DNA of 34,534 bases from contig JBGFSC010000001.1 in assembly GCA_041694815.1 (NCBI GenBank), forward strand, positions 1-34,534. The letters are read 5' to 3'. Source of the DNA: Elusimicrobiota bacterium (lineage in GTDB: Bacteria > Elusimicrobiota > Elusimicrobia > UBA1565 > JACRDR01). The stretch's first letter is position 1. Every line of letters starts with the position of its first letter. The translations under genes were made by a program, and so were the position numbers. A model generated the notes under the pieces. That model was not told the DNA's origin, searched no databases, and saw nothing but the letters and a program-made list of their open reading frames with translations. Shown here piece by piece: positions 148 through 34,441 of this stretch.

Positions 148-1248
148 CTAAATGAAATTCGGGTGCTGCCTCGGCGAGTCGGAACCCTCGGCCGGGCGGC
201 CGTTTTCCTTAATGTCCCAAAGAATGGTGTTGAAGGAATCGCAGCGGCAGAGGGGAGGGCAGTCGCGGAAATCGACGCTGTCGGCCACCTTCTTGCGCTC
301 GGTGGAGTTCCACAGCTCGGGCAAGCTGCGCTTCGACAAATCACCGAGGCAGTACTTCTCGACGCCGCGCATATGGCAGCAGACGTACATCTTGCGATCC
401 GCCGAAACGACTGCGGCGAAATTCTGGCCGTAGCATCGCTTATAGTCCCGCTCCAGTTGCCCGGCCTGGATCAGTCGATATTTATGCTCGGAATGGAGGA
501 CCTTATACCCATCGGTGGATAACTGCGCGGCGCGGCGCATCTCCTCGAGAATCTCGCCGTCGCTGTAATCCACGTCGGGCCGGCCGTGGCGGCGAAGCAG
601 GGGACGGTACTGGGCGTAATCGACCCCCAGCTCCCGCCCCAGGAGGGCAAAGGCGACTATGTCGCGCTTGGTCTCGTTGGAAGTCAGGAAACCGATCCCG
701 ACCGTGCATGCGGAGCCCGTCTCCTTCTTGAGGCGGACGAGGTCGCGCACGTTGGCGAGGACCTGCCTAAAGAACGGCTCGTTCATGCCATGCGTAAGTT
801 TGAACACTTCCGGGGTGGCCGCGTCGATGCTGACGCGGATCCATTGGCAGTTTTCCAGCAAGACGCGGGCCTTCGCCTCCGTCAAGATTTGGCCGTTGGT
901 GATGAACCCAATGTCGAGACCCAGCGACCTCGCGTGCCGCACGGCATCCAGCACGATGGGGCTGACCAGCGGGTCGCCGCCGCCGGTGAAGGTCAGGCCG
1001 CGACCGCCGAACCCAGCGATCTCGCGGATGATGCGCTTGGCCTCCTCCAGGTGCATCCTGGCCTGGTCCCGCTCGGGAGCGTAGCCGAAGCAATGGGGAC
1101 AATCCTGGTTGCATAAATTGGTGAGATCCAGCTCATAGGTAACCGGGCGCGAATCGCCGGTCGCCAGCCACTCCTGGACCCGGTCCATGTGGCCATAAAT
1201 TTTGTCAGACGCGAAGGGCTGCGCGGCCTGCTCTTTTACGGCGGGCAT
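148..1248 (-). CDS. Radical SAM protein with C-terminal SPASM-type domain
   Basis: CNQDCPHC (CxxxCxxC), FTGGGDP, ITNG, VSIDAAT, and a Cys-rich C-terminus CYGQ...YVCC...LGDL...CPPLCRC. ATG 1248 is preferred over TTG 1269 because a promoter-like element overlaps the latter. Confidence 0.93.
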   Translation of the reverse strand: MPAVKEQAAQPFASDKIYGHMDRVQEWLATGDSRPVTYELDLTNLCNQDCPHCFGYAPERDQARMHLEEAKRIIREIAGFGGRGLTFTGGGDPLVSPIVLDAVRHARSLGLDIGFITNGQILTEAKARVLLENCQWIRVSIDAATPEVFKLTHGMNEPFFRQVLANVRDLVRLKKETGSACTVGIGFLTSNETKRDIVAFALLGRELGVDYAQYRPLLRRHGRPDVDYSDGEILEEMRRAAQLSTDGYKVLHSEHKYRLIQAGQLERDYKRCYGQNFAAVVSADRKMYVCCHMRGVEKYCLGDLSKRSLPELWNSTERKKVADSVDFRDCPPLCRCDSFNTILWDIKENGRPAEGSDSPRQHPNFI

Positions 1249-1259
1249 GACGAGCGGAC

Positions 1260-1289
1260 AGGGTATCAAGAAACGGCGCCATTTGGCAA
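1260..1289 (-). promoter_or_regulatory. Putative sigma70-type promoter for the SPASM radical SAM gene
   Basis: Minus strand TTGCCA-18 nt-TACCCT with an extended -10 TG, 11 nt upstream of ATG 1248. Confidence 0.4.
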
Positions 1290-1326
1290 CTGAATTACGG
1301 ACCGATCCGGCGCTTACGCCATCCCT

Positions 1327-2133
1327 TCAAATGGAGCTGCGGTGATCGATGAAGCGATCCAACTGGTCCAGGACGTCCATCGCGTACCCGCACCACTTCT
1401 GGACTAATATCTCGCGATTGCGGACGCGCATCCCGTCGTAATCCATTCCTACGTAGCCCTTCCCACCGAAATGATGGAGATAGACGTCCTGGGCAACCGC
1501 CAGGCGATAGCCCGCCTGCCGGACCCGAATGCAATAATCGTAGTCCTCGTACCCGCCCGGCCCGAATCGCTCGTCGAGCAGCCCGACCCGGTCTAGAACC
1601 TCCCGCTTGATCAACATGCAGAAACCGATCACCCGGTGCGCCTCCTTCCAGCGCCCGTCGCGCTCGCGGGCCCAGCGCCTGGCGAATGGCTCGAAGCGGC
1701 CGGGGGACCGGTAATCCGGATCGCGCACCAGCTGGTGCCCGACGGCTCCGTTCGTGCAGGGGGCCACGATGCCGATGCGGGGCTCTCGTTCGGCGCATCG
1801 GATCATGCGCTCGAGCCATTGAGGACCGACCAAGGTGTCGGCGTTGAGCAACACGATATATCTGCCCTGAGCCAGCCGCATCCCCTGGTTGTTGCCGCCG
1901 GCGAAGTAGCGATTGCGGTCGTTCTCTACCAGGCGGACTCCGGACCGCCTGGCTAGGCCGCGCAAGTATGGCCCCGAGCCGTCCTGGGAGTTGTTGTTTA
2001 CGAAGATCAGCTCATAGGGAGTCCGGCGCGCGTCGGTGTTGCGCCGCAGGCTGCGCACGCAGCCCCGGAGGTACTTGCCGTCGTTGTGGCAGAGCAGGAC
2101 AACGCTCACCATTGGCCTGCGAGACGGGCGCAT
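1327..2133 (-). CDS. Glycosyltransferase family 2 (GT-A fold)
   Basis: VSVVLLCHN, NNSQDGS, NRYFAGGNNQG, LLNADT, GFCMLIKREVLDRVGLLDERF...EDYDYCIR. Start may be ATG 2133 or 2112. Confidence 0.93.
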   Translation of the reverse strand: MRPSRRPMVSVVLLCHNDGKYLRGCVRSLRRNTDARRTPYELIFVNNNSQDGSGPYLRGLARRSGVRLVENDRNRYFAGGNNQGMRLAQGRYIVLLNADTLVGPQWLERMIRCAEREPRIGIVAPCTNGAVGHQLVRDPDYRSPGRFEPFARRWARERDGRWKEAHRVIGFCMLIKREVLDRVGLLDERFGPGGYEDYDYCIRVRQAGYRLAVAQDVYLHHFGGKGYVGMDYDGMRVRNREILVQKWCGYAMDVLDQLDRFIDHRSSI

Positions 2134-2143
2134 TCCGATTTCT

Positions 2144-2149
2144 TACAAT
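2144..2149 (+). promoter_or_regulatory. Putative -10 element in the short divergent spacer
   Basis: TACAAT about 30 nt upstream of ATG 2180. No convincing -35. Confidence 0.3.
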
Positions 2150-2179
2150 GTTTCCCGGAGCCAGCACAAGCGACCGCTC

Positions 2180-4240
2180 ATGGGATTGCGGGAAAAAATC
2201 GACCTCGACGTCCTGACGATCAACGGCCTGTTCCTGTCGTACCAGCTGGCGGCGCAAAGGGCCTTCTATTATCACGTCCCGAAATTTCCGCTAACATTCG
2301 ACCTCGAAAGGACATTCGTCGTACTCCTAGTCTTCAACTTGGCCTTCGCCGGCTTGTCAGCCGGCTTGTTGGCCGCCTCGAAGGGCCTGGCGCCGCGTCG
2401 GCCTGCACTACTCTTAGGCTTGACCATCCCCCTTTCCGCGCTGCTCATTCGAGAATGGACACCTTCCGCGGTCCGGTCCTACTGGGCGTTGACGGCCATG
2501 GCTTCGCTTTCACTCTTCCTGCCTTCCGTCGTCTTTGGGATGGCGCTTGCGCGCCGGGCGGGCGAGGATGCCCCCCGCTTCCTACTGAATGCGGGGCTCG
2601 GCGCGGCCTCGGGCGTGCTCGCCTATCACACCGTCCTGGGATTTCTACCGTTCGCACTCACCTTCGCAGCCATCGCGCTCACCTTGATCACGATCGAGCT
2701 CCGGACAGGCGGTATCGGCGCGCGCTTTGCCGCGGGAGTCGGATGTGCACTGATAGCATTCACGTTTTATGCCGGCCGCCTTCCGGAAAACGGCGTTTTG
2801 CATCGAGCCTTCACCCCGCTCGGGGTGACGGAGGCCTACTCAAGCGGCCTTCTCGCGACCGACCGCGCGAGTCCTAGCTACGTCGCAAGGCGCGGCGATC
2901 CGAGCTCCATACAGACCCACGCGGACCTACCCTACCGGCTCCGACTCGCGCGCTCGGTGCTCATCCTAGGAAGCGGCGGGGGGCAGGACGTGGCCGCGGC
3001 GCTGCGCCACGGTGCGGATAGAGTGGTCGCGATCGAGATGGACAAGACGCGCGCGCGCCTCATGAGGGGAAAGCTCGCGGCGGCCTCGGATGCCCTTTAC
3101 CTCGATCCCCGCGTCGAGCTGATCGAGGACGAGGCGAGGCACGCGCTCCGTTATATTAAAGAGACCTTTGATCTTATTGTCGTCCAGCGCCCATGGACCA
3201 CTTTCTTTTCGGCCGGCCTGCCGTACGACTATGCCTTCCGGCTGCTGACCTCGCAAGCCTTCCGCGAGTACTCGCGCCTGCTCAAGCCCGACGGCCGCCT
3301 GTTCATCGCCCTTCCCTACAAGCCGCGTCAGACAGCCGTTTGGCAACGGCTGGGCGCTGCATTTGCAGACGCGTGGCCGGAAAAGGCGAGCCCAGGCCAC
3401 GTCGCTCTGCTCAAATCGGACCAGCTCGAATTGCCGTTACTGATCGCCCTTTTCGCGCGATCGCCCTTCTCGCGGGAAGAATGTCGTGCGTTGGGCGGAG
3501 CCGGCCTCGAGCTTGTGCACGCACCCGGCGCTCGACCTGAGTCCCCTCTCCAGCGCGCTTTTTTCAAGGGCGGAGCGACGGCAGATGATCGCCTGCTGCC
3601 GTTGTCAGCCGAAATGCTGCCGCCGGAGCGACGGTTAGCGTGGCTGTTCTCGGCGGCGCTGCTGCTCGCGCTTCTGCATGTGGGATTTAAGCGCTTCCCC
3701 ACGCGGTGGCATCCGGCGGGCTACCTCGGGCTCGGGATCGCCTATCTATGCCTGCAATCCTTCTTGATGCTGCATGCCGTCTTCTTTCTGGGCGACACCC
3801 TGGCGGCGTATCAGATCGCCCTGACCTGCTTCATCCTGTTCGGCGGCATAGGCTACCTGCACGCGGCCTCGGCCCCGAAGCCGGCAGTGCCCACTGCTGG
3901 GGCGGGCTTGCTGCTCCTGATCGCGGCCATCGGCCACACCGGCCTGCTCTGGGACCTGCCCTCGCATCCGGTCGCCGAGAAGGCCCTTGCGGGAATGCTC
4001 TGCGGCGCCGCGGGCTACCTGTCCGCCTATCCTTTCGGATTCGCCGTATCGAGAGAGAGCGACGCGGTCCGCGCGTACGCATGGGACAGCCTGGGCACGC
4101 TGCTCGGCTTTCCGATTCTCTTGATCCTGCTCCGGCTTCCCTTTCCCGATATGGCATTGCTGCTCGGATCGTCCTACGCGGTCGCCGGGCTTTCAGTTTT
4201 CCTGTCCGTCGATCGGCAGGCCACTAACGGTCACACTTAG
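2180..4240 (+). CDS. Multi-pass membrane protein with central spermidine-synthase-like class I SAM-binding domain
   Basis: Hydrophobic helices at both ends around VLILGSGGGQDV, VAIEMD, EDEARHAL, FDLIVV, LTSQAFREYSRLLKPDG. Start moved to ATG 2180 to remove overlap with the divergent GT2. Confidence 0.85.
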   Translation: MGLREKIDLDVLTINGLFLSYQLAAQRAFYYHVPKFPLTFDLERTFVVLLVFNLAFAGLSAGLLAASKGLAPRRPALLLGLTIPLSALLIREWTPSAVRSYWALTAMASLSLFLPSVVFGMALARRAGEDAPRFLLNAGLGAASGVLAYHTVLGFLPFALTFAAIALTLITIELRTGGIGARFAAGVGCALIAFTFYAGRLPENGVLHRAFTPLGVTEAYSSGLLATDRASPSYVARRGDPSSIQTHADLPYRLRLARSVLILGSGGGQDVAAALRHGADRVVAIEMDKTRARLMRGKLAAASDALYLDPRVELIEDEARHALRYIKETFDLIVVQRPWTTFFSAGLPYDYAFRLLTSQAFREYSRLLKPDGRLFIALPYKPRQTAVWQRLGAAFADAWPEKASPGHVALLKSDQLELPLLIALFARSPFSREECRALGGAGLELVHAPGARPESPLQRAFFKGGATADDRLLPLSAEMLPPERRLAWLFSAALLLALLHVGFKRFPTRWHPAGYLGLGIAYLCLQSFLMLHAVFFLGDTLAAYQIALTCFILFGGIGYLHAASAPKPAVPTAGAGLLLLIAAIGHTGLLWDLPSHPVAEKALAGMLCGAAGYLSAYPFGFAVSRESDAVRAYAWDSLGTLLGFPILLILLRLPFPDMALLLGSSYAVAGLSVFLSVDRQATNGHT

Positions 4241-4260
4241 AACAGATGGTGGCTCGAGAC

Positions 4261-4277
4261 TAAAATAAATATAGTGT
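4261..4277 (+). promoter_or_regulatory. AT-rich putative promoter for the TPR/SGNH operon
   Basis: TAAAATAAATATAGTGT with TATAGT at 4270-4275, upstream of ATG 4289 in an otherwise GC-rich context. Confidence 0.35.
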
Positions 4278-4288
4278 AGCCCGACACG

Positions 4289-5821
4289 ATGAAAAACATC
4301 TTCTATCTGCTCTGCCTCCTCACGCACTCGCCTTCGGCCGCCGCGGTTGATCTCCCTTGGAGCCGTGCGATGAGCGCGGGCCAAGCGGCCTACGAAGCGG
4401 GAGACTACCGGCGGGCGGAGACGTCTTTCAAGAAAGCGATCCGTCGCGCTGAAGCGGCCGGCCTTCCAGAGCTACAATTGGCCGTCAGCTGCAACAATCT
4501 GGCCCAGGTCTACCGGATGCTGATGCGCTATCGAGAGGGAGAGACCCTGCTTAAGCGATCGTTAGCCATCCGGGAAAGGCTGCTGGGCCCCGGAGACCCA
4601 GAGACGGCCGCGAGTGTCTACGCCCTCGGAACTCTCTACCAGGCAAATGAAAATTATGCCGCCGCAGGCCCCTTATTCCACAGGGCCTGGGCGATATGGG
4701 AAGATATCTTCGGTCCCGATTTCCCTCCCGTCGCGATGACCCTCAACAATCTGGCCACGAAATACCGCTACGAAGGCCGTTTGGCGGAGGCGGAGGCCGG
4801 CTATCGACGTTCCATAGAGCTCTTCGAGGCGACCGATCCATCTCATCCCGAACTGGCCTCGGCCCTGAATAACCTCGCTGAACTTTATCGTTCGGAAGGG
4901 CGATGTGATCAGGCCGAGGGGCTTTACCTTCGGGCCATCGCGATCGATGAAAAGACCCTGCACTCGGGACATCCCGATCTCGCGGCCCTGCTCACTAATC
5001 TAGGGCTGTTGCACCGCCAATGCGGGAAGCCAGAGCAAGCGAAGCCTCCACTGGAGCGCGCCCTGGACATACGCCGCCGGATCCTCGGAATCGATCATCG
5101 GACGGCTGAAAGCGCGTATCATCTCGGCGACTATCACCGCGACCGCGGAGCCCTTCCGGAAGCCGAAGCGCTCTACATGGAATCGTTGCGCATCATGCGG
5201 AAGGTATGGCCGAAGGGAAGCGAGCACTTCACGGTGCTCGTGCGGCTCGGTGAGCTCGAACGATCGAGGGGAAACTTCAGGAAAGCGGAGGGTTATCTTA
5301 CCCGGTGCAAGGATCTTCTCGAGAGGGTCCTGGGGCCCAAACATCCGGATTTTGCCGATTCCCTCGCCTCCTTAGCAAACCTCTATGAGCAACGGGGGCT
5401 CCAAGAGAAAGCCCAGCCCTTATACCAACGCGCGCTGCGGCTGCTCGAAGATGCGCTGGGACCGGAGGACCCTCGCGCACTCCGCTGCGCGTTCCGCCTA
5501 GCGCGAAGCTACGCGCTCACTGGCGATGACGGGCGGTCCGTGCTCGAGTACGAGAGGGCCCTACGATCCGAGAGAATGACATTCGACTCGACGGCCGAGC
5601 GCGCGATCGCGGATATCCAAGCCCGCGCGGGAGCCCTCTCCATCGATTCCGAGACGCTCTATCGCCAAGCCCTGGGCGCTCGACAGAAACACCGGGCCAA
5701 CAGGGCCGCTCGCCTGGCCGCTCATCTGAGGGAGTACGCCGAGGTCTTGGAGCGGCTCAAACGTGTTTCCGAAGCCCGACGGTCGAGGATGGAGGCGGAT
5801 CATCTCCTGCCCTTGGATTAA
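4289..5821 (+). CDS. Exported tetratricopeptide repeat protein (42-aa, kinesin-light-chain-like repeats)
   Basis: Signal-peptide-like MKNIFYLLCLLTHSPSAAA and repeated LNNLAxLY...AE.LY.RA..I....LG..HP units. Confidence 0.92.
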   Translation: MKNIFYLLCLLTHSPSAAAVDLPWSRAMSAGQAAYEAGDYRRAETSFKKAIRRAEAAGLPELQLAVSCNNLAQVYRMLMRYREGETLLKRSLAIRERLLGPGDPETAASVYALGTLYQANENYAAAGPLFHRAWAIWEDIFGPDFPPVAMTLNNLATKYRYEGRLAEAEAGYRRSIELFEATDPSHPELASALNNLAELYRSEGRCDQAEGLYLRAIAIDEKTLHSGHPDLAALLTNLGLLHRQCGKPEQAKPPLERALDIRRRILGIDHRTAESAYHLGDYHRDRGALPEAEALYMESLRIMRKVWPKGSEHFTVLVRLGELERSRGNFRKAEGYLTRCKDLLERVLGPKHPDFADSLASLANLYEQRGLQEKAQPLYQRALRLLEDALGPEDPRALRCAFRLARSYALTGDDGRSVLEYERALRSERMTFDSTAERAIADIQARAGALSIDSETLYRQALGARQKHRANRAARLAAHLREYAEVLERLKRVSEARRSRMEADHLLPLD

Positions 5822-5828
5822 GCCGATC

Positions 5829-6371
5829 GTGCTGGCCGCCCTCGCCGGTGCCATGCCCGCGTTCGCCGAGCCACCCGCCTTCGAGCAAGCGCTCTCGAGC
5901 GTGGGGATGGTCTACCGTGGCTCGAGCGCCTACCGCGTTGAGCGCGCCTATCGTCACGCCGAAGTTCCCGATCGAGGCCGCGCCGTTTACGAGACATGGC
6001 TGGGCTCCTCCGATCTTTTCCGTTTGAGGTTGCGGACCGTATCGCCGATAGCTCCGGAGAACGTCCGGCTCAGAATCGCCGTCCGGCTGAAGCATAAGGG
6101 CATCGACGCCGGTGGCAAAGGCGAGGGGTCATGGCTCATCTCGGGCGGCTCGCGCACCGCGGCGGGCGTCTTTCGCTATTGTCCCGCCGGCCGTTCGCTG
6201 GCAGAGATCGAATTGACTGCCGCCGGTTCCGCCTTCGAACCGACCCGCCTAATGGAGGAGGCGGACGCATTCCGCTGCGGCCAGGCGCACGGATTGCCAG
6301 AGCCTCCATCGGCCGATGATCCGCCATCGGATATTTTGCGTGGCCTCCGGGAGATGGGCTACGTCTATTGA
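5829..6371 (+). CDS. Hypothetical exported protein
   Basis: Fills the gap between two TPR genes. Signal-like VLAALAGAMPAFA-EPP, two Cys, C-terminal LRGLREMGYVY. Start uncertain (GTG 5829; track start 5763). Confidence 0.7.
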   Translation: MLAALAGAMPAFAEPPAFEQALSSVGMVYRGSSAYRVERAYRHAEVPDRGRAVYETWLGSSDLFRLRLRTVSPIAPENVRLRIAVRLKHKGIDAGGKGEGSWLISGGSRTAAGVFRYCPAGRSLAEIELTAAGSAFEPTRLMEEADAFRCGQAHGLPEPPSADDPPSDILRGLREMGYVY

Positions 6372-6375
6372 CAGC

Positions 6376-7578
6376 ATGCGGGTCCGAATCTCTTCTTTCC
6401 TTCTCGCCCTCTTTTTTCCGTTCTTCGGCTGTCGCGCCCACACGTCGGTCCAAGCCGATCGGCAAGCGGCCGCACGCTTGAGAGCGCGTCTGGAAGCCGA
6501 TCTCGCGGCCGGTAGCCTCACCGATGCAGAACGCTCCTGGAGGCAGGCGCAGACCGCGTGCCCTGGCTGCACGGAACTCTACGACTCTCTCGTCGCGTTG
6601 GGCTATCTCCAACTGGAGAGCGGACGCGACGAGCAGGCCCGCAACGCCTTCCAACAGGTCCGCGGGGCGACCGATTACCTCGGCTTGCACCACCTGGGCG
6701 GATATTACAATCTCATCGGCCGCTTCGATGAGGCGGAGAGGCATTACCTCAAGGCGCTCAAGGCCGAGGAGCAGGCGATGCTCTCGGCCGGAGATCAGAA
6801 CGTTCTGCCAACCATGATCCACACACTCCACGACTTGGCCTATATCTACTCGGTCCAGAAAAAGACCCACCTGGTCGAAGCTATACGGCCGCGGCTCGAT
6901 GCGTTGGTGCAGCGCATGTCGCCTCCTCGCGCGACCGAGCTAATCCGGTTGGCGCATGTGCAGCTCTTCCTCGGCAGGAATGCCGAGGCCAAGGCGCTTT
7001 TCATCCGGGCCCTTTCCTTGCCGAACGCCCATCGCAACGACGTCCTCGAGGCCCATCTCCGCCTTGCGGAGCTCGAGGCCGTACAGGGCCGCTTTCGCGA
7101 GGCGCACGAGATCTACCGCCTCCTGCTCGCCGATCCCGGATTAACGCCGATCGATCGGGCCGGCGTGCGCCGCGCATCGGGGCAACTCCACGCCTCGCAA
7201 GGATCGTTCGACGAGGCGGAAGCCGCGTTTAGGAGCGTTCTCGACGACACGGCTTCCATGCCCGCGCACCCCGAGAGGATGAGCGCGCTTTCCGGGCTCG
7301 CTCGGCTCTACGTTCGGATGGAACGCCTCGATGAGGCCGAAAGGCGCTACGACGAGCTCTGCCGAGCCTTGGAGCACCGAAAGGCGAGCCCGGCCCTCTT
7401 GGGCGCCCTCAGGGATTGGGCGGAGGTGAAGTCGGGCCGCGGGAGATACGAGGAAGCCGAGCTTCTCCTGAAACGGCGCCTCCAAGGGGCGAAAGGCTCG
7501 GGCAACCCATCGGAGATCGAACAAGCCGAGCAAGACTTGGCCCGCCTCCATGACCGAGCCCGCAGCGTCGTCCGCTAA
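6376..7578 (+). CDS. TPR protein, possible lipoprotein
   Basis: ATG 6376 follows the previous stop by 4 nt. MRVRISSFLLALFFPFFGC is lipobox-like. Several TPR helix pairs and a CPGC motif. Confidence 0.88.
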   Translation: MRVRISSFLLALFFPFFGCRAHTSVQADRQAAARLRARLEADLAAGSLTDAERSWRQAQTACPGCTELYDSLVALGYLQLESGRDEQARNAFQQVRGATDYLGLHHLGGYYNLIGRFDEAERHYLKALKAEEQAMLSAGDQNVLPTMIHTLHDLAYIYSVQKKTHLVEAIRPRLDALVQRMSPPRATELIRLAHVQLFLGRNAEAKALFIRALSLPNAHRNDVLEAHLRLAELEAVQGRFREAHEIYRLLLADPGLTPIDRAGVRRASGQLHASQGSFDEAEAAFRSVLDDTASMPAHPERMSALSGLARLYVRMERLDEAERRYDELCRALEHRKASPALLGALRDWAEVKSGRGRYEEAELLLKRRLQGAKGSGNPSEIEQAEQDLARLHDRARSVVR

Positions 7579-10160: not shown

Positions 10161-10170
10161 AGCCCTCAGA

Positions 10171-14290: not shown

Positions 14291-14311
14291 AAGGCGCGCT
14301 TTAACCCCTCC

Positions 14312-17783: not shown

Positions 17784-17807
17784 CATGATAACGGTTTTGC
17801 TATCATG
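17784..17807. promoter_or_regulatory. Inverted repeat forming back-to-back -10 elements (putative bidirectional promoter or operator)
   Basis: CATGATA-N10-TATCATG in the 40-bp divergent spacer. Each arm reads TATCAT outward. Confidence 0.55.
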
Positions 17808-26741: not shown

Positions 26742-26774
26742 GGTATCAACGTATCATAATGCGAAAAGGACGCG

Positions 26775-28016: not shown

Positions 28017-29212
28017 TTCAAAGCCTCCAGGACGGCCTTGGCCGCGTTTTGGGCGATTAACCGGTTGCCTCGCTCCGTGCAGTGACCCCAATTTCCCCCG
28101 AATCGATCGATAAAATAATCGTCGTAGCTGCCGCCGTTGAGCGCCTTGCGAAACGAGTCCTTATTATCGATGAAGATGACGTCCGGAAGGCCCTCCAGCA
28201 TGCGCCGAAGCTCCGCGGCATCGCGGAGCGGATACTGCATCGCAAAAAAAAGCGCGCCCCCAGCCTGCGCCATCCGGACGATTTTACGATAGTTCACCGT
28301 GGTCGGGCCGCCGGCGATATCCAGCAAGGATCTTTTCTCCACGACAGGCTTCCCGTGGGCAGCCCTGCTGCGCGACGCGGCCAGCGCCTCCAGTCCGTGC
28401 CGGAAGTTTTCGTTCTCTGGATGGAGACGGATGGCTCTTCGATAAGCCGCCTCCGCCGCGTCGAAACGACCCTGAGTCTCATAGAGCTCTGCGAGCTTGG
28501 CGTACAGAGCCGTGTTTCCCAATTGCGTCGCCTTGAGCAGCACGGCCTCGGCTTGCGCCCACCGCCCCTCGAGCCGGTAAAGGTAGGCTAGGTCCGAGGC
28601 CCACTCTATTGCGGATGGATCCTCGGCCAGGGCGCGCTCATACATGATGCGCGCCTCCTCCTTCATCCCACGCCCCAAATAACGCGCGCCAAGCTCGGCA
28701 AAATGAGACGGCATTTTGTCCGCCAACGGGCGAGGCCGGAAAAATGCCGCCGCGAGGGCTTGGCGAGCCGATCGCGCGAGCTTAAACACCCGCCATGACC
28801 GCAGTCGAGCGCTTAGTGGCGCCCGCGCTTGGATTCCATGCCAGCCATGGTCATTGACGCCGATCATCGCAATCACGATATGCGGCCTGCATGCATAAAT
28901 ATCTTGTGGAAAACGATTCGCGAGAATCTCGGTGTTCGAGGCAATACCGCCGCGGTTGATCACTCGATACCTCCGCGAGCCGCGCCGCTGCAAGATCCGC
29001 TGAAGTTGCGCCGGCCAAGAGTGATCGTAGTACGGCGTCGGAGCCGTCGTCGACTCGCCCAGACAGAGAATGCGGATCACGTCTTTCTCCGTAGAGCTCG
29101 TCCCAGGCACCGGTGGCCGCGCGGACAGCCAAAGGCCGGCGGAGCGCATTCCCGATTCAACGAGCAGAAGCCCTATGGCTATCCCGAATATGATTAAAAA
29201 TGCCCTCTTCAT
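28013..29212 (-). CDS. Membrane-anchored SGNH/GDSL-fold protein with inserted TPRs
   Basis: MKRAFLIIFG anchor, ILCLGESTTAP, NRGGIASNT, MIGVND, TPRs, WGHCTERGNRLIA. Paralog of 8874-10160. Confidence 0.9.
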   Translation of the reverse strand: MKRAFLIIFGIAIGLLLVESGMRSAGLWLSARPPVPGTSSTEKDVIRILCLGESTTAPTPYYDHSWPAQLQRILQRRGSRRYRVINRGGIASNTEILANRFPQDIYACRPHIVIAMIGVNDHGWHGIQARAPLSARLRSWRVFKLARSARQALAAAFFRPRPLADKMPSHFAELGARYLGRGMKEEARIMYERALAEDPSAIEWASDLAYLYRLEGRWAQAEAVLLKATQLGNTALYAKLAELYETQGRFDAAEAAYRRAIRLHPENENFRHGLEALAASRSRAAHGKPVVEKRSLLDIAGGPTTVNYRKIVRMAQAGGALFFAMQYPLRDAAELRRMLEGLPDVIFIDNKDSFRKALNGGSYDDYFIDRFGGNWGHCTERGNRLIAQNAAKAVLEALK

Positions 29213-29290
29213 GCACTTTAGAAAACGCCTCTGTCGCTTCAACGGACAGACATTGCTTGACCTGTCTAATGCAGAGTCCGACGAAGTAGA

Positions 29291-30193
29291 TTACGCTGCT
29301 CCGCGACGGCGCCCATAAAGATCCCACTGGTACAGGAACTCCCTACAACTGCAGCGCTCGAAACTGCACGGTTCTGGACGATCGCCGAGACGGAAACCCG
29401 GTTCGAGCAGATTACCCATTGGCTCGGCCTCAGCGGCGGCGGAACAACGGAACACGTCGCCGTTGGCTTTGACGGTCACGTACACATGGCCGGCCCCGCA
29501 GAGTCTGCCTTTTGGCGAAGGCCGGCTCAAACGCTGCCGCTTCTCGTCCTTGGTAATAAACGCGCCGATCAACTCTCGCTCCTGAGGCGTGTACGCCTCG
29601 GGATAGATTCTGCCGGCCCAAGGACCCTGGAAAACCTGCACCACCATCGCGTGGCCCCGCGCCTCGAACATGGATTTCCACGCCTTCAGCCGCGGCAGGA
29701 AGGGAGGCCACGCGACGATCGTAGCCCACGATACCCTTGCGCGGGACTCGATCAAACTCAGCCTCTCGAGGAAGGCCTCTGGCTCCGCGAATTGAGGATG
29801 AAAGCTAGCCGAAATCCGCAAACGGTCTAGGGGGACCGATTGGAGCAGGACGGTGAGGCGCTCAATCGATAAGGAAAGGTTCGTCGCAAGCAGCACATAA
29901 TGTTTTTTAAGCAGCCCGCTCAATAATTTATCGAAGTCTGGATAATTCGTCGGTTCGCCCCCGAGCAAATCTATACGCGCGGTCCCATGCGAATCGAATA
30001 TACGATCCCACGCATTGATCCATTCCTCCGCTGACAACAACTTGTGCTCTAATGCCAGTTTATCCCATAATTGCCGGGATTCCCACCAGCGATATGAACA
30101 CCGGTAGTTACAGGCGTACCATAAGTCCCAACAAAATGTCAGTCCATCCCATTCTTCCGCCAACCACCAACGCTTTGTTAGCTCGATCCCCAT
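29291..30193 (-). CDS. Radical SAM/twitch-domain protein with degenerate cluster motif (CxxxCxxR)
   Basis: CNYRCSYR, LGGEPT, ATNLS, ASFHPQF, and C-terminal CGAG...GDVFRC...CSFERCSC. Confidence 0.88.
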   Translation of the reverse strand: MGIELTKRWWLAEEWDGLTFCWDLWYACNYRCSYRWWESRQLWDKLALEHKLLSAEEWINAWDRIFDSHGTARIDLLGGEPTNYPDFDKLLSGLLKKHYVLLATNLSLSIERLTVLLQSVPLDRLRISASFHPQFAEPEAFLERLSLIESRARVSWATIVAWPPFLPRLKAWKSMFEARGHAMVVQVFQGPWAGRIYPEAYTPQERELIGAFITKDEKRQRLSRPSPKGRLCGAGHVYVTVKANGDVFRCSAAAEAEPMGNLLEPGFRLGDRPEPCSFERCSCREFLYQWDLYGRRRGAA

Positions 30194-30238
30194 CTTTTTA
30201 TAGACTCCTGATCTCGCAACAGGTCCGTAAAATAGGGA

Positions 30239-31114
30239 CTAACCTTCCCGCCGATTTTCGAGGAGCCACCGACTCTCACAAAGGCAATGCCCGGAAGGGC
30301 AGGGCAGCGGTTGATCATAGAGCGCGAAGTTATCACGGATGTTACCGATCCTCGTCTCAAGGCCCATCGCCATATTACAACGATAAATATCCCCGCTTTG
30401 GCTGATATGGCAGTACAGTTGGCCGGCCGTACAAGGCTTTCCCTTGGGGCTCTGATTCCCGATTGCGACGTCAAGCATATTTCGATAATCGTCCACGCTG
30501 TTGTGACCCCTCCCCGGCCGGTTGGCGTTATAAATGGTTTCTCTCTCTTCATGAGAATAGCCGTGCGGATATTCATGGAGCTGATAAACTCCATGAAAAG
30601 GCTGAACGTATACGCTTAGACCACTGGCCCTGATCTCGTTGCACCACGACTCTAATGAGGGAATGTGCGGCGGATAAGCCACGATAACGATATAGAGATT
30701 GTACCCAATAGAGGCCATCCAGCGGACTTTCTCGATAAAGGGCGCCAGCTCGATCTGAGAAGGATGGAAACTCGCTTGAATTTCGACGCGCTGCAGGTCC
30801 ACTGAACGAGCCATGTTTTGCCACCAAGCCGAGGGCATGGAAATATTTGATGGAAATTTAAGGGTATGCCAGCTGGTTAGCCCATGTGCCAACTCAATGA
30901 AACGCGGATATATCGTGGGTTCTCCTCCGCTGAGGATGATATGGCTGGGACCGTATCGTTCATAAACAAATTTCCAAAACGAAAGAGGTGCATCTAACGG
31001 AGGGTATACGTTATGTTTATTTAAATCCTCCCATCGACCGTCAAAAAAACAATAAGCGCATCTATAGTTGCAGGCGATATGCAAGGTCCAGTCGAACTCG
31101 ATTGAATGACGCAT
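30239..31114 (-). CDS. Radical SAM/twitch-domain protein
   Basis: CNYRCAYC, SGGEPT, SNIS, ASFHPSQ, CTAG...GDIYRC...CPSGHCLC. Start ATG 31114 or 31156. Confidence 0.92.
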   Translation of the reverse strand: MRHSIEFDWTLHIACNYRCAYCFFDGRWEDLNKHNVYPPLDAPLSFWKFVYERYGPSHIILSGGEPTIYPRFIELAHGLTSWHTLKFPSNISMPSAWWQNMARSVDLQRVEIQASFHPSQIELAPFIEKVRWMASIGYNLYIVIVAYPPHIPSLESWCNEIRASGLSVYVQPFHGVYQLHEYPHGYSHEERETIYNANRPGRGHNSVDDYRNMLDVAIGNQSPKGKPCTAGQLYCHISQSGDIYRCNMAMGLETRIGNIRDNFALYDQPLPCPSGHCLCESRWLLENRREG

Positions 31115-31174
31115 GATTGCGTAAATAATAAAATATTCACGGTTCACTAGTCTCATGCAGAGAGTTATTCTTTC

Positions 31175-31960
31175 ATGCGAAAACTAAAAGTCCTCTCCCA
31201 GCACGAAGTCAATCAGTTCGAAGAAAAAGGATACGTTATGCTGCGAGGTGTTTTCTCCTCGCAGTTGGCGGCGCATGTCCGCGCAGAGATCTGGCGTGAG
31301 ATGAGGCTTTCCCCCGACGATCCTGCGGGTTGGACACAGGCGATGATCCACGTCAAAAAATACTTCACCGGACATCCCTACGACCAGGCCTTTCCTCCTC
31401 GCTTTCACCATGCACTCGACGAACTGATGGGCGAGGGGCGCTGGTGGAAAACCGAAGACCGGCTGGGCATGTGGTTTATCGCATTTCCGGGACATGACCC
31501 TCCTCAATGGGTCGAGCCCAACCAGGGATGGCACATAGAGGGCAGCTTCCACCACTTCGTCGATTCGCCGATGCAGGGCATTCTGCCGATTTTCCTTTTC
31601 TCGGATATCGGTCCCAAGGATGGCGGGACTCTCCTCTCACTGGGTTCGCATAAAATCGCCGCCCGAGTCCTCGCGGAGGCCGGTGAAACCGGACTCGAGG
31701 AAGCCGAACTTAACCGCCGCGTTACGGCGCTCCATCAGTTGGAAAACGTCATAGAGGTTACCGGGAAGGCCGGTGATGTCGCCCTGATCCATCCATTTAT
31801 GCTTCATACGCGCGGCGTCAATAGGGGCAATTCGGTGCGATTCATCTGCAACCCGTACTACACCCTAAAGGAACCGATGAACTTGAATCGTTCCGCTGTA
31901 TCCGAATATTCACCGGTCGAGCTCGCCATCGTTGAAGCCCTCGCTGAACGCGCCAGATGA
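31175..31960 (+). CDS. Phytanoyl-CoA dioxygenase (PhyH)-family Fe(II)/2-oxoglutarate dioxygenase
   Basis: FEEKGYVMLRGVF, GWHIEG, FSDIGPKDGGT...GSH, GKAGDVALIHPFMLH, RFICN. Confidence 0.9.
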   Translation: MRKLKVLSQHEVNQFEEKGYVMLRGVFSSQLAAHVRAEIWREMRLSPDDPAGWTQAMIHVKKYFTGHPYDQAFPPRFHHALDELMGEGRWWKTEDRLGMWFIAFPGHDPPQWVEPNQGWHIEGSFHHFVDSPMQGILPIFLFSDIGPKDGGTLLSLGSHKIAARVLAEAGETGLEEAELNRRVTALHQLENVIEVTGKAGDVALIHPFMLHTRGVNRGNSVRFICNPYYTLKEPMNLNRSAVSEYSPVELAIVEALAERAR

Positions 31961-31984
31961 CGCGCTGGCCGAGCAAGGCATGCA

Positions 31985-32265
31985 TCAAACGTTTTCCGCG
32001 CCCGCGCTCCTCCTCCAACACCTCAACGACTCGAGCAGCCTTTTGAAAGTGGTCCCCTTGCGGATAAGGTCGCAGGTGGCGGGCGCGGCGCTATCGATCG
32101 GCAAGGTCAAGGAGGTATGCGTCTTGAGGAGTCGCCGGTAATGATACTATGGCGGATCTGGGAAAATTCGGCGACTGCTTGAAAAAGCGGCTTAAGATAA
32201 TCCGCGACGAACACTTCACACCCCTGCCACTGTAAATCCCTCAGGTACGACCACAGGCCTCGCGC
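31985..32265 (-). pseudogene. Decayed radical SAM gene fragment (absent from the ORF track)
   Basis: Manual translation gives LWSYLRDLQWQGCEVFVADYLKPLFQAVAEFSQIRHSIITG, then a frameshift to RRLLKTHTSLTLPIDSAAPATCDLIRKGTTFKRLLESLR...stop. These match the GGE, TNG and SID-A-Y--IR core motifs in order. Confidence 0.72.
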
Positions 32266-32326
32266 TTATATAATGCAATGTTTTCTGCAAAAATCTGATC
32301 GTTCATCGCATATTAATCTTAGCTCA

Positions 32327-32355
32327 TTGCCACGACAATGGAATTCTGTTAAGAT
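32327..32355 (+). promoter_or_regulatory. Near-consensus sigma70-type promoter, predicted leaderless transcript
   Basis: TTGCCA (32327-32332)-17 nt-TAAGAT (32350-32355) with an extended -10 TG. ATG at 32362 sits at the expected start site. Confidence 0.65.
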
Positions 32356-32361
32356 GTGCCC

Positions 32362-32602
32362 ATGACAGCGGCCCTCTTGAGTGCGGGGCTTTTTTCTTTG
32401 GCACTCGCCGGGTTGTCGCCTGAGACCCTTCAGACTCTAGAACAGCTTGCCAAGCGTTACCATCGCACGCACGGATAATCTTAAGGACTTAGCCGAAGTC
32501 TTCCGAAGGGTTGAGTCTTTTTCGGCAAAGAGCGCGGCCCGCTGGATACTTCTCTCCAAGGTGGCTAAATATAAGCGCGATTTTGCTCTACTTCAGCCAT
32601 AA
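32362..32602 (+). pseudogene. Small exported-protein ORF (38 aa, 32362-32478), probably frameshifted by a 4-bp duplication
   Basis: MTAALLSAGLFSLALAGLSPETLQTLEQLAKRYHRTHG*. Removing one GCAC from GCACGCAC (32465-32472) extends it through DNLKDLAEVFRRVESF...ALLQP* to 32602. Confidence 0.5.
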
Positions 32603-32665
32603 AACCTTTTGCGCCAAATGCAAAGAAGCATTGGGGAAGGATTTAGACTACGCTTTCGTCTGTCA

Positions 32666-34441
32666 ATGATAGGCGCGCTCCTGTTGGGCTGGTTGTGGTC
32701 GCCGGCTATCGTAGTGGGAGCCGATCTATGCGGTTCCACCGAAGCCCCCCATATCGTCTTGATTCTTTTGGATGCGGCGCGGGCCGATCATTTTTCCTCA
32801 TGGGGTTATTCAAGGCCGACGACGCCTCAGATCGACAAAATCGCCAAGCGCGGCGCCAAATTCTTAAGGTATTTTTCTAACGCGTCGGGAACATGGGAAG
32901 CGGTCCCGCGCCTATTGTCTTCCCGTTATTTTTCTCGACGGGTCTTTCATATCAATCAAGAATTCGGCGTTCCCGAAGCACGCCCGGAGGACCTGCTTGA
33001 TAATTTTGACCCCGAACAGAAGCTCCTCCCTGAAATCCTATCACGCTGCGGTTATCGGACCGCGCTTTTCACTCAGCATCTAGGCATGCTGCCGCCCAAT
33101 GAGCTGACTCGATGGATAGATTTCGTACGGGTCGCTCAACGCCATGGCCCATCTGACCAGTCGTTTATTCAGGAGGCGGCCAGATGGTTTCTTCAAGCGA
33201 CTCAAGGCGGTCCGAGCTTTCTTTACGTGCATTTGATGCTGCCGCATGAACCTTATGAGCGCTATCCATGTGAATTGAACGGAAGCCTGAGTTATACAAT
33301 CGGACCAGCGACTTTGGCGCGCGTATTCGATAAGCTCGAAGCAGACCAACCAAAAACCAAATCAGCCGATGGCTGGACCTCCGACGAACTTAAGGCACTC
33401 ACTGCGCTATATGATGACAATCTTCTTTGCGGAGACAAACTCGTTGGGGAGCTAGAAGCATCGATCAGACGCGGCGGCCGCGCAGACAAAACCATCATGG
33501 TAGTAACGTCCGATCATGGAGAAAACCTAGGACAGCACGGGAACCTTGGCCACGGGGGTCCACCGTACGCATCGATTACCCATGTACCACTCATCCTAGT
33601 GTATCCGCCTAAGGTACCCACCGGTGTCGCTGTTCATGGCCTAAGCGAAGGGGTCGACATGGTGCCGACGCTATTAGATCTCGCCGGTATACGCCCCCAC
33701 AGCGTAAGTTTCGATGGAATCAGCCTCAGGCCGTTCCTTAAAGATCCAAACGCAAGCAAAGATGCTGTATTGACGCAATTCAACCTGCGCAATTCTTCGT
33801 ATAGTTTTTTTATGGAGGGCAGGGAGCTCTTTGATTTGCGGGTTGATCCCAACGAAACAACCACTATAGCGGACCAACTCCCTGTGCTTGAAAATCTACA
33901 CCGACTGTACACCACTCGTATCCGTCCGCATGAGGATCGATTTACTCGAAGCAAAAGCACCACACCACTTGCAATCCAAATACCGATACTGGCGAAAGAT
34001 GTGCGCAACCCCGGAATGTTGCATTATGAGAATTCGACCTCGTCAATGGCGAAAAGATCATCGCAGCCCTGGGTCCTTCGTCCAGATATGGTCGCGTCAA
34101 CGGCGAATGGTCTTCGCCGATGCGCAGAGATCGGTGCGGAAGCACCGCTGGGAATAAGCATCGATCAGATCCCCAACGGGCGTTACCAAGTCGCTTTATT
34201 TGCCCAGGCTTGGCAAGGCCCGCTTCCGAATTGGCGGGCGATGCGGCTGCAGTTTCGCTTCGATCAGAATGGACCGTTTCAAGGAATTCAAGGCGTTGAA
34301 ACTGTCTATCGCTTTGGCAAAGCGATTCCGATGAAGGATGCGCAGTACCTAAAATTAGGCGAGACGACGATTAGGGATTGGAAGATCAATTTTGAGTTAA
34401 AGGACAGTCAAGGTCACTCCTGTCCGGTTAAAATAGCGTAG
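32666..34441 (+). CDS. Exported sulfatase-like (alkaline phosphatase superfamily) hydrolase/transferase with extra C-terminal domain
   Basis: Signal MIGALLLGWLWSPAIVVGA, LILLDAARADH, GYSRPTTPQID, YVHLMLPHEPY, TSDHGE, HVPLI, DMVPTLLDL, ELFDL..DPNE. No C/SxPxR motif. Start could be as early as 32609. Confidence 0.9.
   Translation: MIGALLLGWLWSPAIVVGADLCGSTEAPHIVLILLDAARADHFSSWGYSRPTTPQIDKIAKRGAKFLRYFSNASGTWEAVPRLLSSRYFSRRVFHINQEFGVPEARPEDLLDNFDPEQKLLPEILSRCGYRTALFTQHLGMLPPNELTRWIDFVRVAQRHGPSDQSFIQEAARWFLQATQGGPSFLYVHLMLPHEPYERYPCELNGSLSYTIGPATLARVFDKLEADQPKTKSADGWTSDELKALTALYDDNLLCGDKLVGELEASIRRGGRADKTIMVVTSDHGENLGQHGNLGHGGPPYASITHVPLILVYPPKVPTGVAVHGLSEGVDMVPTLLDLAGIRPHSVSFDGISLRPFLKDPNASKDAVLTQFNLRNSSYSFFMEGRELFDLRVDPNETTTIADQLPVLENLHRLYTTRIRPHEDRFTRSKSTTPLAIQIPILAKDVRNPGMLHYENSTSSMAKRSSQPWVLRPDMVASTANGLRRCAEIGAEAPLGISIDQIPNGRYQVALFAQAWQGPLPNWRAMRLQFRFDQNGPFQGIQGVETVYRFGKAIPMKDAQYLKLGETTIRDWKINFELKDSQGHSCPVKIA

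Follow-up and report, generated by a model that had tools for sequence, protein, structure and literature searches.

Gene Content of the Window

The window analysed here is a complete contig of 34,534 bases (JBGFSC010000001.1, labelled C42) from an Elusimicrobiota genome assembled into 54 contigs (2.77 Mb, 97.8% complete), and the nearest named homologues of its genes fit that assignment. It holds several expanded gene families, among them radical S-adenosylmethionine (SAM) enzymes, GT-C glycosyltransferases and periplasmic SGNH hydrolase-like proteins carrying tetratricopeptide repeats (TPR), which we examined as a candidate system for tailoring an envelope glycan. Pfam (29 open reading frames, ORFs) and NCBIfam (26 ORFs) searches bore out the composition that a first-pass annotation had read from the sequence: six radical SAM genes and one remnant, three GT-C genes of the PMT_2 type, five SGNH genes and four exported TPR-only genes with hydrophobic N-termini, together with single genes for AsnB, GT2, a class-I methyltransferase, PhyH, a sulfatase-fold protein and a polytopic membrane methyltransferase. 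The absences listed by the same annotation also held, as the 29 ORFs gave no Pfam match to Wzx, Wzy, ABC transporter or other exporter, nucleoside diphosphate (NDP)-sugar, non-ribosomal peptide synthetase/polyketide synthase or regulator families. No tRNA and no Rfam match were found in the window.

With one ORF caller and one profile set, 40 radical SAM and 18 GT-C genes were counted among the 2504 ORFs of the genome. Against this background the window was enriched in radical SAM genes (6 of 25 ORFs, binomial tail 2e-6) and in GT-C genes (3 of 25, tail 8e-4). Genes matching the profiles of both SGNH halves numbered five genome-wide, and all five were located inside the window. The paralogues have diverged to 21–43% identity; they are therefore old and do not result from recent tandem duplication.

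SGNH Proteins Split by a TPR Insert

The five SGNH proteins are the following.

7550..8887, plus strand: divergent split SGNH protein with a helical/TPR insert and an N-terminal anchor (Lipase_GDSL_2 4e-11, TPR_2 6e-5; both halves found)
8874..10160, plus strand: split SGNH-TPR protein of the type CLGESTT...GHCT (Pfam; alignments; AlphaFold model)
22574..23746 (ORF to 23866), minus strand: split SGNH protein of the type CIGDSFT...GHPN (Lipase_GDSL_2 6e-14; both halves found)
26775..28016 (ORF to 28091), minus strand: split SGNH-TPR protein (Lipase_GDSL_2 1e-16, TPR_2 1e-9; the ATG at 28016 overlaps the upstream stop)
28013..29242, minus strand: split SGNH-TPR protein, first in a seven-gene operon (Pfam; 33% identical to 8874-10160)

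The first-pass annotation had described them as SGNH proteins bearing TPR. Both families are present, and the alignments and the AlphaFold model place the repeats differently: the TPR region is inserted within the SGNH fold, behind an N-terminal membrane anchor, and is not appended to it. At its N-terminus, the protein encoded at 8874-10160 has a long hydrophobic helix in which a Glu is conserved. Residues ~57–129 then contain block I (C-L-G-E-S-T-T), block II (Gly) and block III (G-x-N-D). The TPR insert covers residues ~144–340, and the fold resumes with core strands 344–348 and 368–370 and block V (F-G-H-C-T) within 340–420. The AlphaFold model (mean predicted local distance difference test score, pLDDT, 83.9) shows a helix at 6–41, strands at 53–59, 90–94 and 120–124, and TPR helices at 144–340. 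The sequence carries blocks I, II, III and V expected of the SGNH superfamily, and the model shows a core of strands and helices interrupted by the TPR helices.

The Ser, Gly, Asn and His residues were kept in all five window proteins, with Lipase_GDSL_2 above cut-off in each. Two sequence types coexist, GES..GHC and GDS..HPN. In an alignment of 38 sequences G59, G96 and H401 were invariant, and S61 and N128 were at least 90% conserved. A Foldseek search of the model against the PDB returned TPR matches only and did not confirm the SGNH fold, and a profile search of solved structures with the 38-sequence alignment likewise returned TPR proteins only. The ESM Atlas contains GDSL+TPR clusters of 56–103 members, mainly from Omnitrophota, Acidobacteriota and Zixiibacteriota, which carry automatic names only. 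An SGNH fold split by a TPR insert would define an uncharacterised enzyme architecture.

Radical SAM Genes and the Adjacent GT2

148..1269, minus strand: radical SAM/SPASM gene, downstream of the GT2 gene (Pfam Radical_SAM 2e-18, SPASM 2e-7; CNQDCPHC motif)
1327..2133, minus strand: soluble GT2 (Pfam Glycos_transf_2 1e-26; no hydrophobic segment; NCBIfam matches all far below cut-offs)
11739..13322, minus strand: cobalamin-type (class B) radical SAM (B12-binding 2e-19, Radical_SAM 8e-20; CPYRCSFC motif)
16228..17766, minus strand: cobalamin-type radical SAM (B12-binding 1e-15, Radical_SAM 9e-17; top NCBIfam match HpnJ, 145 bits against a cut-off of 578)
25359..26741, minus strand: class-B-like radical SAM (Radical_SAM 1e-22; CPFTCSYC motif; full-length match to a custom B12 radical SAM profile, 2.6e-129)
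29291..30193, minus strand: small radical SAM paralogue, STM4011-like, in which the third cysteine of the cluster motif is lost (CNYRCSYR; Pfam/NCBIfam)
30239..31156, minus strand: small STM4011-like radical SAM (CNYRCAYC; 35% identity to a homologue whose gene adjoins a GT-C gene in locus L122)
31988..32146, minus strand: radical SAM remnant (53-codon frame; positions 102–138 of the core profile, E=3.8e-5)

The C...C..C motif is kept in five of the six genes, and the remnant suspected at first pass was recovered by the radical SAM core profile. Both the B12-binding domain and the C...C..C core that mark class B were found by Pfam, above cut-off, in 11739-13322 and 16228-17766. In 25359-26741 Pfam detected the radical SAM core only, the N-terminal part aligning with B12-type families in NCBIfam and in the custom profile. 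Three window genes thus qualify as cobalamin-type radical SAM enzymes, with cobalamin binding predicted. The nearest solved relatives act on sugars, at weak similarity: AprD4 (2e-13) for 11739-13322, and BlsE (7.7e-9) and DesII (2.4e-4) for 148-1269. TokK (1.5e-9) is a further solved relative of 11739-13322. The NCBIfam equivalogs matched by 11739-13322 all scored far below their cut-offs.

The radical SAM/SPASM protein is 46% identical over its full length to the product of another radical SAM/SPASM gene that directly adjoins a GT2 gene, in the Omnitrophota locus L122. A role as anaerobic sulfatase maturase was considered for it and discarded: no such model stood among the best 25 of its 32 NCBIfam matches, and the sulfatase-fold protein of the window does not have the target motif. 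The two small STM4011-like genes belong to a paralogue family with 11 members on contig C48 of the same genome. All 12 paralogues of 29291-30193 (one in the window, 11 on C48) keep C...C..C; with its third cluster cysteine lost, 29291-30193 looks inactive.

GT-C Transferases

10171..11742, minus strand: GT-C (PMT_2 6.6e-10), last of a three-gene operon; seven hydrophobic segments; PGLYADE in the first loop; start overlaps the stop of 11739-13322
20335..21921, minus strand: GT-C (PMT_2 6.5e-12), last of the seven-gene operon; PGLHIDE; ATG overlaps the methyltransferase stop
23743..25362, minus strand: GT-C (PMT_2 1e-13), start taken as the GTG at 25362 (ORF to 25761); PGLHMDE; start overlaps the upstream stop

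All three scored above the PMT_2 cut-off, with 5–8 hydrophobic segments, and carry the acidic motif P-G-L-x-x-D-E after the first membrane segment. The motif was also present in a fourth GT-C, located on C48 head to head with a B12 radical SAM gene, and was absent from the other twelve GT-Cs aligned from the genome. The products of 20335-21921 and 23743-25362 share 43% identity. No solved relative of the window GT-Cs was found by sequence search. A polyprenyl-phosphate sugar donor is predicted, as for the family in general.

Transcription Units and Gene Fusions

The first-pass annotation had linked these families to one another, and their arrangement within the genome agrees with it: they are joined in operons with start/stop overlaps. 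Two further genes take part.

13319..14248, minus strand: exported TPR protein, first of the three-gene operon (TPR_12 3e-34; stop overlaps the start of 11739-13322)
21918..22577, minus strand: class-I SAM methyltransferase, start taken as the GTG at 22577 (ORF to 22682) (Methyltransf_23 6e-10; start/stop overlaps with its neighbours)

The larger unit runs from 29242 down to 20335 and comprises seven genes in the order SGNH-TPR, SGNH-TPR, B12-type radical SAM, GT-C, SGNH, methyltransferase and GT-C. Candidate starts overlap upstream stops at five junctions, in two chains (28013-29242 with 26775-28016; then 25359-26741, 23743-25362, 22574-23746, 21918-22577 and 20335-21921) separated by a 33-base gap. 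In the smaller unit, from 14248 down to 10171, the TPR, B12 radical SAM and GT-C genes (13319-14248, 11739-13322, 10171-11742) overlap at both junctions. These overlaps are the strongest evidence within the genome that the predicted cytoplasmic, membrane and periplasmic parts may serve one process.

Fusions and close pairs point in the same direction. In an uncultured bacterium, a single ORF of 713 residues (L067:2867-5008), located beside SGNH-TPR and B12 radical SAM genes, joins GT2, radical SAM and SPASM domains; the counterparts in the window, GT2 at 1327-2133 and radical SAM/SPASM at 148-1269, lie side by side. On C48 a minus-strand ORF of 904 residues (C48:19625-22339) fuses B12-binding, radical SAM, SGNH and TPR regions. 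It contains no hydrophobic segment, and by eye the nucleophile Ser is replaced by Ala and block V has no His, so that the SGNH-TPR module attached to this radical enzyme looks cytoplasmic and catalytically dead. At C29:11486-14306, in otherwise unrelated surroundings, 10 bases separate a B12 radical SAM gene from the anchored SGNH gene that comes after it. The fusions favour a substrate common to GT2 and radical SAM/SPASM, and one common to B12 radical SAM and SGNH. The C29 SGNH protein has a juxtamembrane A-E-L..L-R motif as in the split family and a shorter insert.

Recurrence in Other Genomes

With 8874-10160 as query and a cut-off of 1e-8, matches were found in 32 of 301 Elusimicrobiota genomes (source genome included), often in tandem. 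All species-representative genomes were then covered by a pattern scan built on an 11-sequence alignment, the neighbours being classed with profiles made from the paralogues of the source genome. The scan matched 597 stretches, of which 539 were confirmed as split SGNH-TPR relatives, and the best 78 loci were kept. By record title these comprised 29 loci from Omnitrophota, 15 from Planctomycetes, 12 from Elusimicrobia, six labelled archaeon, five unclassified, three from "Patescibacteria group" (one metagenome-assembled genome, MAG), three from "Rickettsiales", two from Thermodesulfobacteriota and one each from Spirochaetes, Margulisiibacteriota and Sumerlaeota, all of them metagenome or single-cell assemblies.

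Counts were made over the 77 loci with a recognised SGNH gene. SGNH genes were called with profiles of both halves; a one-piece profile also caught plain TPR proteins (36 genome matches), and the counts barely differ. Radical SAM genes were present in 32 loci (B12 type in 17), GT-C genes in 18, both in 14 and either in 36; AsnB occurred in three. Two or more SGNH genes were found in 38 loci, in tandem arrays of up to seven, and TPR-only genes were rare (7/77). The frequency of both partners fell with distance from the SGNH gene. Radical SAM genes made up 11.9% of genes within two positions, 9.5% at distances of 3–5 genes and 6.5% from the sixth gene onwards, and GT-C genes 4.9%, 2.0% and 0.9%, respectively. 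The same pipeline gave 1.6% and 0.72% over the source genome, hence an enrichment of about sevenfold per gene next to SGNH genes, a figure weakened by a background rate and profiles taken from one genome and by loci of the same MAG or of near-identical genomes (L076/L078), which are not independent.

Pfam was applied to 96 ORFs from 11 loci preselected by profile flags, and it bore out the profile assignments. PMT_2 was found in 8/11 and B12-binding with Radical_SAM in 8/11. The other matches included radical SAM/SPASM, small GT2, methyltransferase, AsnB (2) and carbamoyltransferase (2), and, as genes of glycan metabolism, Glyco_transf_9 (2), Wzy_C with WecG (1), GT1, DegT, epimerases/dehydratases and GHMP kinase. 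In the Omnitrophota locus L124 the gene order is GT-C, two of the B12 radical SAM type, SGNH-TPR, methyltransferase, AsnB, SGNH-TPR, radical SAM, GT2, GT-C, GT1 and GT2, which by predicted families is nearly the parts list of the window itself. Judged by these profiles, four or more phyla have these families as recurrent neighbours.

A Proposed Model of Envelope-Glycan Tailoring

We propose that the window is an accessory island that tailors an envelope glycan and is built from a modular toolkit, a reading to which we give a probability of roughly 0.55. The target would most likely be a lipopolysaccharide (LPS)/O-antigen-like or capsular glycan. The related loci, with their Glyco_transf_9, Wzy_C, WecG, GT1, DegT and epimerase genes, have a setting of glycan biosynthesis, and so does a locus on contig C40 of the source genome (38–110 kb). 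The latter is a Wzx/Wzy_C/GT4 glycan locus with seven PMT_2 matches, GT2, sugar epimerases/dehydratases, AsnB, GT1 and YfhO; it also includes a radical SAM/SPASM gene with a carbamoyltransferase gene and a methyltransferase gene with a B12 radical SAM gene. LpxC is present in the genome.

In this model a sugar carried on polyprenyl phosphate or on a nucleotide would be edited in the cytoplasm by the radical SAM enzymes, the AsnB-type amidotransferase and the methyltransferases. The radical SAM set would consist of three cobalamin-type enzymes, one SPASM-type enzyme paired with GT2 and two small STM4011-like enzymes, one of them apparently inactive. Candidate reactions are C-methylation, deoxygenation, epimerisation or decarboxylation, carboxylate amidation and O/N-methylation. 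The editing step would be analogous to that of ArnD acting on undecaprenyl-phosphate-Ara4FN, a precedent for the editing of a lipid-linked sugar before flipping. After flipping, the three ArnT/PMT-like GT-Cs would move the sugar onto the glycan at the periplasmic face, and the five membrane-anchored periplasmic SGNH enzymes may then strip the product of O-acyl groups or relocate them, while the inserted TPR domain would offer a surface that binds the polymer or a partner. The modules are probably semi-independent decorations and not one linear pathway. We infer the acceptor, the sugar and every one of the reactions.

A bolder form of the model can be drawn, which we advance tentatively and regard as rather doubtful. 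The cobalamin-, SPASM- and STM4011-like radical SAM enzymes would have as their direct substrates the polyprenyl-phosphate-linked sugars that a partner or fused GT2 produces. The resulting C-methylated, deoxygenated or otherwise rearranged sugars would be added to LPS-type glycans by ArnT-like GT-Cs, outside the membrane. A new class of periplasmic glycan O-acyl enzymes, working without MBOAT or AT3, would be represented by the split SGNH-TPR proteins, and the whole would be a widespread modular toolkit of Omnitrophota, Planctomycetota and Elusimicrobiota, seen in no cultured model organism.

Several observations weigh against the glycan-tailoring model. No flippase, Wzx/Wzy, initiating transferase or NDP-sugar enzyme was found by Pfam in the 29 window ORFs, so the pathway cannot be closed from the window. 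The GT2 at 1327-2133 has no membrane segment and no ArnC/GtrB-type model among its NCBIfam matches. Peptide maturation is another classic role of B12 and SPASM radical SAM enzymes, and members of the PMT family can add sugars to proteins. Neither PF01757 (AT3) nor PF03062 (MBOAT) was found in the 97.8%-complete genome, which leaves an O-acetyl-transfer role of the AlgX/PatB kind without a known donor partner; none was found either among the Pfam-scanned neighbours of the related loci. An esterase role or an unconventional acyl donor is therefore more likely than acetyl transfer of the AlgX/PatB type. The genome is rich in periplasmic SGNH enzymes despite having no AT3/MBOAT match.

Other points concern the distribution of the genes. 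In 41 of the 77 loci neither radical SAM nor GT-C was found. Twenty Elusimicrobiota neighbourhoods were examined with Pfam (198 neighbour ORFs); radical SAM was seen in six (L021, L030, L031, L032, L037, L038), a clear GT-C in two (L025, L031) and neither family in 13, 11 of the 20 loci having been scanned at 1e-10, a level at which weak PMT_2 matches could be missed. Many SGNH-TPR arrays sit among housekeeping genes (yidC-jag-mnmE-argS, obg, bipA, dnaJ, DEAD helicases), which indicates that SGNH-TPR genes do not need the other families nearby. A search of 300 other Elusimicrobiota genomes gave close relatives of the GT-C at 10171-11742 in only 6. In other phyla, the GT-Cs located near SGNH genes belong to different subfamilies and do not have the PG..DE motif; there is no orthology of the GT-Cs between phyla. 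In the small-genome Elusimicrobiota loci L026 and L036, SGNH-TPR genes are inserted in the conserved yidC-jag-mnmE-argS order, and a pair of Glyco_transf_9 and GT2 genes is found close by, as is a gene for a membrane sulfatase-fold protein.

The co-occurrence that the first-pass annotation had proposed to look for was thus seen in part: radical SAM, B12, GT-C, GT2, AsnB and methyltransferase genes do recur beside SGNH-TPR genes in other phyla, and the loci deprived of radical SAM and GT-C (41/77 and 13/20) indicate that this is not a fixed system. We consider as real, on the basis of gene neighbourhoods, a recurrent but optional toolkit with a predicted role in envelope-glycan tailoring.

Alternative Explanations

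The genes of the window may have no common function. It would then be a hypervariable patch of independent envelope genes (GT-C decorations, periplasmic esterases and stray radical SAM paralogues from the C48 array), in which SGNH-TPR would serve a general envelope task such as de-O-acylation of peptidoglycan or LPS, or lipid turnover. The 41/77 and 13/20 loci without either partner family, many of them SGNH-TPR arrays amid housekeeping genes, speak for this explanation, and the age of the paralogues, the fall in G+C content from 64.2% to 52.8% after 29242, the dispersed repeats at both contig ends, the radical SAM remnant and the radical SAM gene that has lost a cluster cysteine fit it as well. 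The genome is moreover rich overall in the families concerned, with 20 PMT_2 and 50 Radical_SAM matches in Pfam. Against it stand the overlaps that place SGNH, B12 radical SAM, GT-C and methyltransferase genes in single transcription units, the approximately sevenfold enrichment beside SGNH-TPR genes in several phyla, the B12 radical SAM/SGNH-TPR fusion on C48, and the stand-alone pair of B12 radical SAM and SGNH genes on C29. We hold this explanation to be unlikely.

A protein or peptide acceptor appears quite improbable. The radical SAM enzymes and AsnB would in that case have as their target a ribosomal peptide, or a protein that is secreted or exposed at the surface, which the PMT-like GT-Cs would O-glycosylate outside the membrane and the TPR domains would bind. 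PMT_2 is the family of the protein O-mannosyltransferases and TPR domains usually bind peptides. The best NCBIfam neighbours of the B12 radical SAM genes include ApyD and rSAM_ocin_1, enzymes of ribosomally synthesised and post-translationally modified peptides (RiPPs), and AsnB resembles lasso-peptide cyclases at a low score. Beside radical SAM genes on C48 there is also a fusion of GT2 with a PqqD-like peptide-recognition domain, and its neighbour encodes a 1768-residue beta-helix protein. Within the window, however, neither a PqqD/RRE domain nor a small intergenic ORF was found, the sole long gap (31960-32609) being occupied by the radical SAM remnant. The related loci carry Glyco_transf_9, Wzy_C, WecG, DegT and epimerases, the fusion of GT2 with radical SAM and SPASM argues for a sugar substrate, and the nearest solved radical SAM relatives act on sugars.

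It is very improbable that the target is the head group of a membrane lipid, such as composite bacteriohopanepolyols or another polar lipid: a squalene-hopene cyclase gene does lie beside a radical SAM gene on contig C44, two B12 radical SAM genes have HpnJ as their best neighbour in NCBIfam, with HpnR also appearing, and GT2, PhyH and the sulfatase-fold enzyme could act on lipids, but the Hpn scores are far below the cut-offs (HpnJ 145 against 578, HpnR 93–97 against 650), the cyclase is on a different contig, hopanoid pathways are not known to use a GT-C, and the related loci of other phyla are in polysaccharide contexts.

Comparison with Known Systems

Tailoring of an envelope glycan, our preferred explanation, was compared with the systems to which it might belong. 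Arn/Gtr-type systems consist of a GT2 polyprenyl-phosphate sugar synthase, a flippase and a GT-C transferase (PMC11127046). The PMT_2/ArnT-like GT-Cs of the window, with their acidic first-loop motif, resemble them, and in related loci a small GT2 gene adjoins a GT-C gene, for instance in L124 where radical SAM, GT2 and GT-C genes follow each other with overlaps. The window differs in that no GtrA or ArnE/F-like family was found in its 29 ORFs to complete the set of a membrane GT2 synthase and a small flippase with a GT-C, and in that its GT2 has no membrane segments. Its putative editors are radical SAM enzymes, AsnB and a methyltransferase, none of which is used by the known systems, and split SGNH-TPR partners are absent from them.

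The genes of a Wzx/Wzy O-antigen or capsule cluster (initiating phosphoglycosyltransferase, Wzx, Wzy and NDP-sugar genes) were all found on C40 and not in the window. The window does not correspond to a hopanoid locus, its HpnJ scores being 145 and 134 bits against 578 and the HpnR scores 93–97 against 650, with the cyclase on C44. Nor does it correspond to a RiPP cluster, with no PqqD match in the window, intergenic gaps too short for a precursor and a 650-base gap that corresponds to the radical SAM remnant.

Periplasmic SGNH enzymes act with TPR proteins in exopolysaccharide machines, as AlgX does with AlgK (PMC9734138). The window proteins share with AlgX/AlgK, PatB/Ape and WssI the SGNH catalytic set, the periplasmic site and TPR surfaces tied to polymer modification. 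They differ by having the TPR inside the SGNH fold of one membrane-anchored polypeptide, by tandem arrays of up to seven genes, and by a genome with no match to PF03062 or PF01757, the membrane MBOAT or AT3 acyl donor proteins that AlgI/AlgJ/AlgX or PatA/PatB O-acetylation pairs with the SGNH transferase. The radical SAM enzymes of sugar antibiotics (AprD4, GenK-type, BtrN, BlsE, DesII) have the same domain architecture and include the nearest solved relatives; the window enzymes differ from them by low similarity, by reaching no NCBIfam equivalog and by a context of envelope glycan genes and GT-C in place of a secondary-metabolite cluster.

Suites of radical SAM genes beside group VI nitrogenase paralogues have been described in groundwater Elusimicrobia (bioRxiv 10.1101/765248). 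The phylum is the same, and many adjacent radical SAM genes, some with B12 domains, are a common trait. The passages of that preprint compared here mention no GT-C, SGNH or TPR partners, the words "glycosyltransferase" and "TPR" having 0 occurrences in them. A link to these paralogues was set aside for the source genome, with 0 PF00148 (Oxidored_nitro) matches and NifH not searched for.

None of these described clusters accommodates the window; in its predicted workings the island resembles extracytoplasmic glycosylation of the Arn/Gtr type and the modification of polymers by periplasmic SGNH/TPR proteins. The view of the first-pass annotation that the combination is not a characterised pathway agrees with a full-text literature search, with most subscription journals outside its scope, that gave no description of the split SGNH-TPR family or of its association with radical SAM and GT-C genes.

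Radical chemistry, including that of cobalamin enzymes, is known mainly from antibiotics, cofactors and peptides. If the glycan-tailoring model is true, such chemistry, cobalamin-dependent reactions included, would be routine in the surface-glycan tailoring of several large uncultured phyla. The SGNH fold split by a TPR insert would be an uncharacterised enzyme architecture with at least 539 members in species-representative genomes. Two kinds of enzyme pair would also become open to testing, one of GT2 and radical SAM/SPASM, the other of B12 radical SAM and either GT-C or SGNH. Surface glycans shape phage recognition, predator recognition and attachment, and a role at the surface would bear on the ecology of groundwater and sediment nanobacteria. 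Should the model be wrong, the island would still be a well-documented family expansion in a hypervariable envelope locus.

Other Genes, Contig Ends and the Rest of the Genome

The remaining genes and the contig ends are listed below.

1..121: left contig-end repeat (~121 bases, 99–100% identical to the ends of contigs C16, C51 and C32)
2036..4240, plus strand: polytopic membrane protein with a central class-I methyltransferase/spermidine-synthase-like domain, 734-codon ORF (Methyltransf_11/25 at residues 308–424)
4289..5821, plus strand: exported TPR protein (TPR_12 1e-68; signal-like N-terminus; 40% identical to 17807-20341)
5763..6371, plus strand: 202-codon ORF of uncertain gene status (one hydrophobic N-terminal segment; no Pfam/NCBIfam match)
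6316..7578, plus strand: exported TPR protein (TPR_12 5e-17; lipobox-like FFGC after an internal Met)
14312..16267, plus strand: AsnB-type glutamine amidotransferase (Asn_synthase 6e-78 and GATase_7)
17807..20341, plus strand: exported 844-residue TPR protein (TPR_12 7e-115; hydrophobic N-terminus)
31175..31960, plus strand: PhyH-type Fe(II)/2-oxoglutarate dioxygenase (PhyH 7e-9)
32609..34441, plus strand: exported sulfatase-fold protein (Sulfatase 1.5e-41; no C/S-x-P/A-x-R formylglycine motif in the N-terminal catalytic region)
34414..34534: right contig-end repeat (~120 bases, 99–100% identical to the ends of at least 11 other contigs)

The AsnB protein scored 431 against a cut-off of 817 with the NCBIfam XrtA/PEP-CTERM amidotransferase model (below) and 411 against 267 with the generic asparagine synthase model (above). 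It is 34–35% identical to the AsnB proteins encoded beside SGNH-TPR, B12 radical SAM and GT-C genes in L124 and L085. The membrane protein at 2036-4240 has ~12 hydrophobic segments, and its true start is probably downstream of 2133. Its best matches were weak (PDB 7xif, 6.8e-6; NCBIfam aminopropyltransferase, 34 bits against a cut-off of 472), and it was rejected as a conserved partner, with no BLAST match at 1e-10 in the 78 related loci. One Spermine_synth membrane protein adjoins SGNH/GT-C genes in the Elusimicrobiota locus L031. Since the formylglycine motif is missing, the sulfatase-fold protein may use another nucleophile.

The fall in G+C content concerns the final 5.3 kb (29243-34534) and hints at a separate origin of this segment, which comprises the two small radical SAM genes, the PhyH gene, the radical SAM remnant and the sulfatase-fold gene. 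As both contig ends are repeats common to many contig ends, the island is bounded by dispersed repeats, probably copies of a mobile element that breaks the assembly. A join between the window contig and C48 was considered and could not be drawn from the contig ends, the ~120-base repeat being common to many contigs.

Elsewhere in the genome, a squalene-hopene cyclase gene (505 bits) at C44:92779-94396 is immediately followed by a radical SAM gene, which makes it probable that the organism produces extended hopanoids. Contig C48 contains, between 4.9 and 57.2 kb, 29 of the 50 Radical_SAM matches of the genome, 28 of them on one strand (B12-type, SPASM-type and the 11 small STM4011-like genes). 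Their companions are two O-methyltransferase genes, a metallo-beta-lactamase-fold gene, an ABC ATPase, GT1, DegT, the GT2-PqqD fusion, GT-C and the 1768-residue beta-helix protein. Of the two regions, this array may be even more remarkable than the window.

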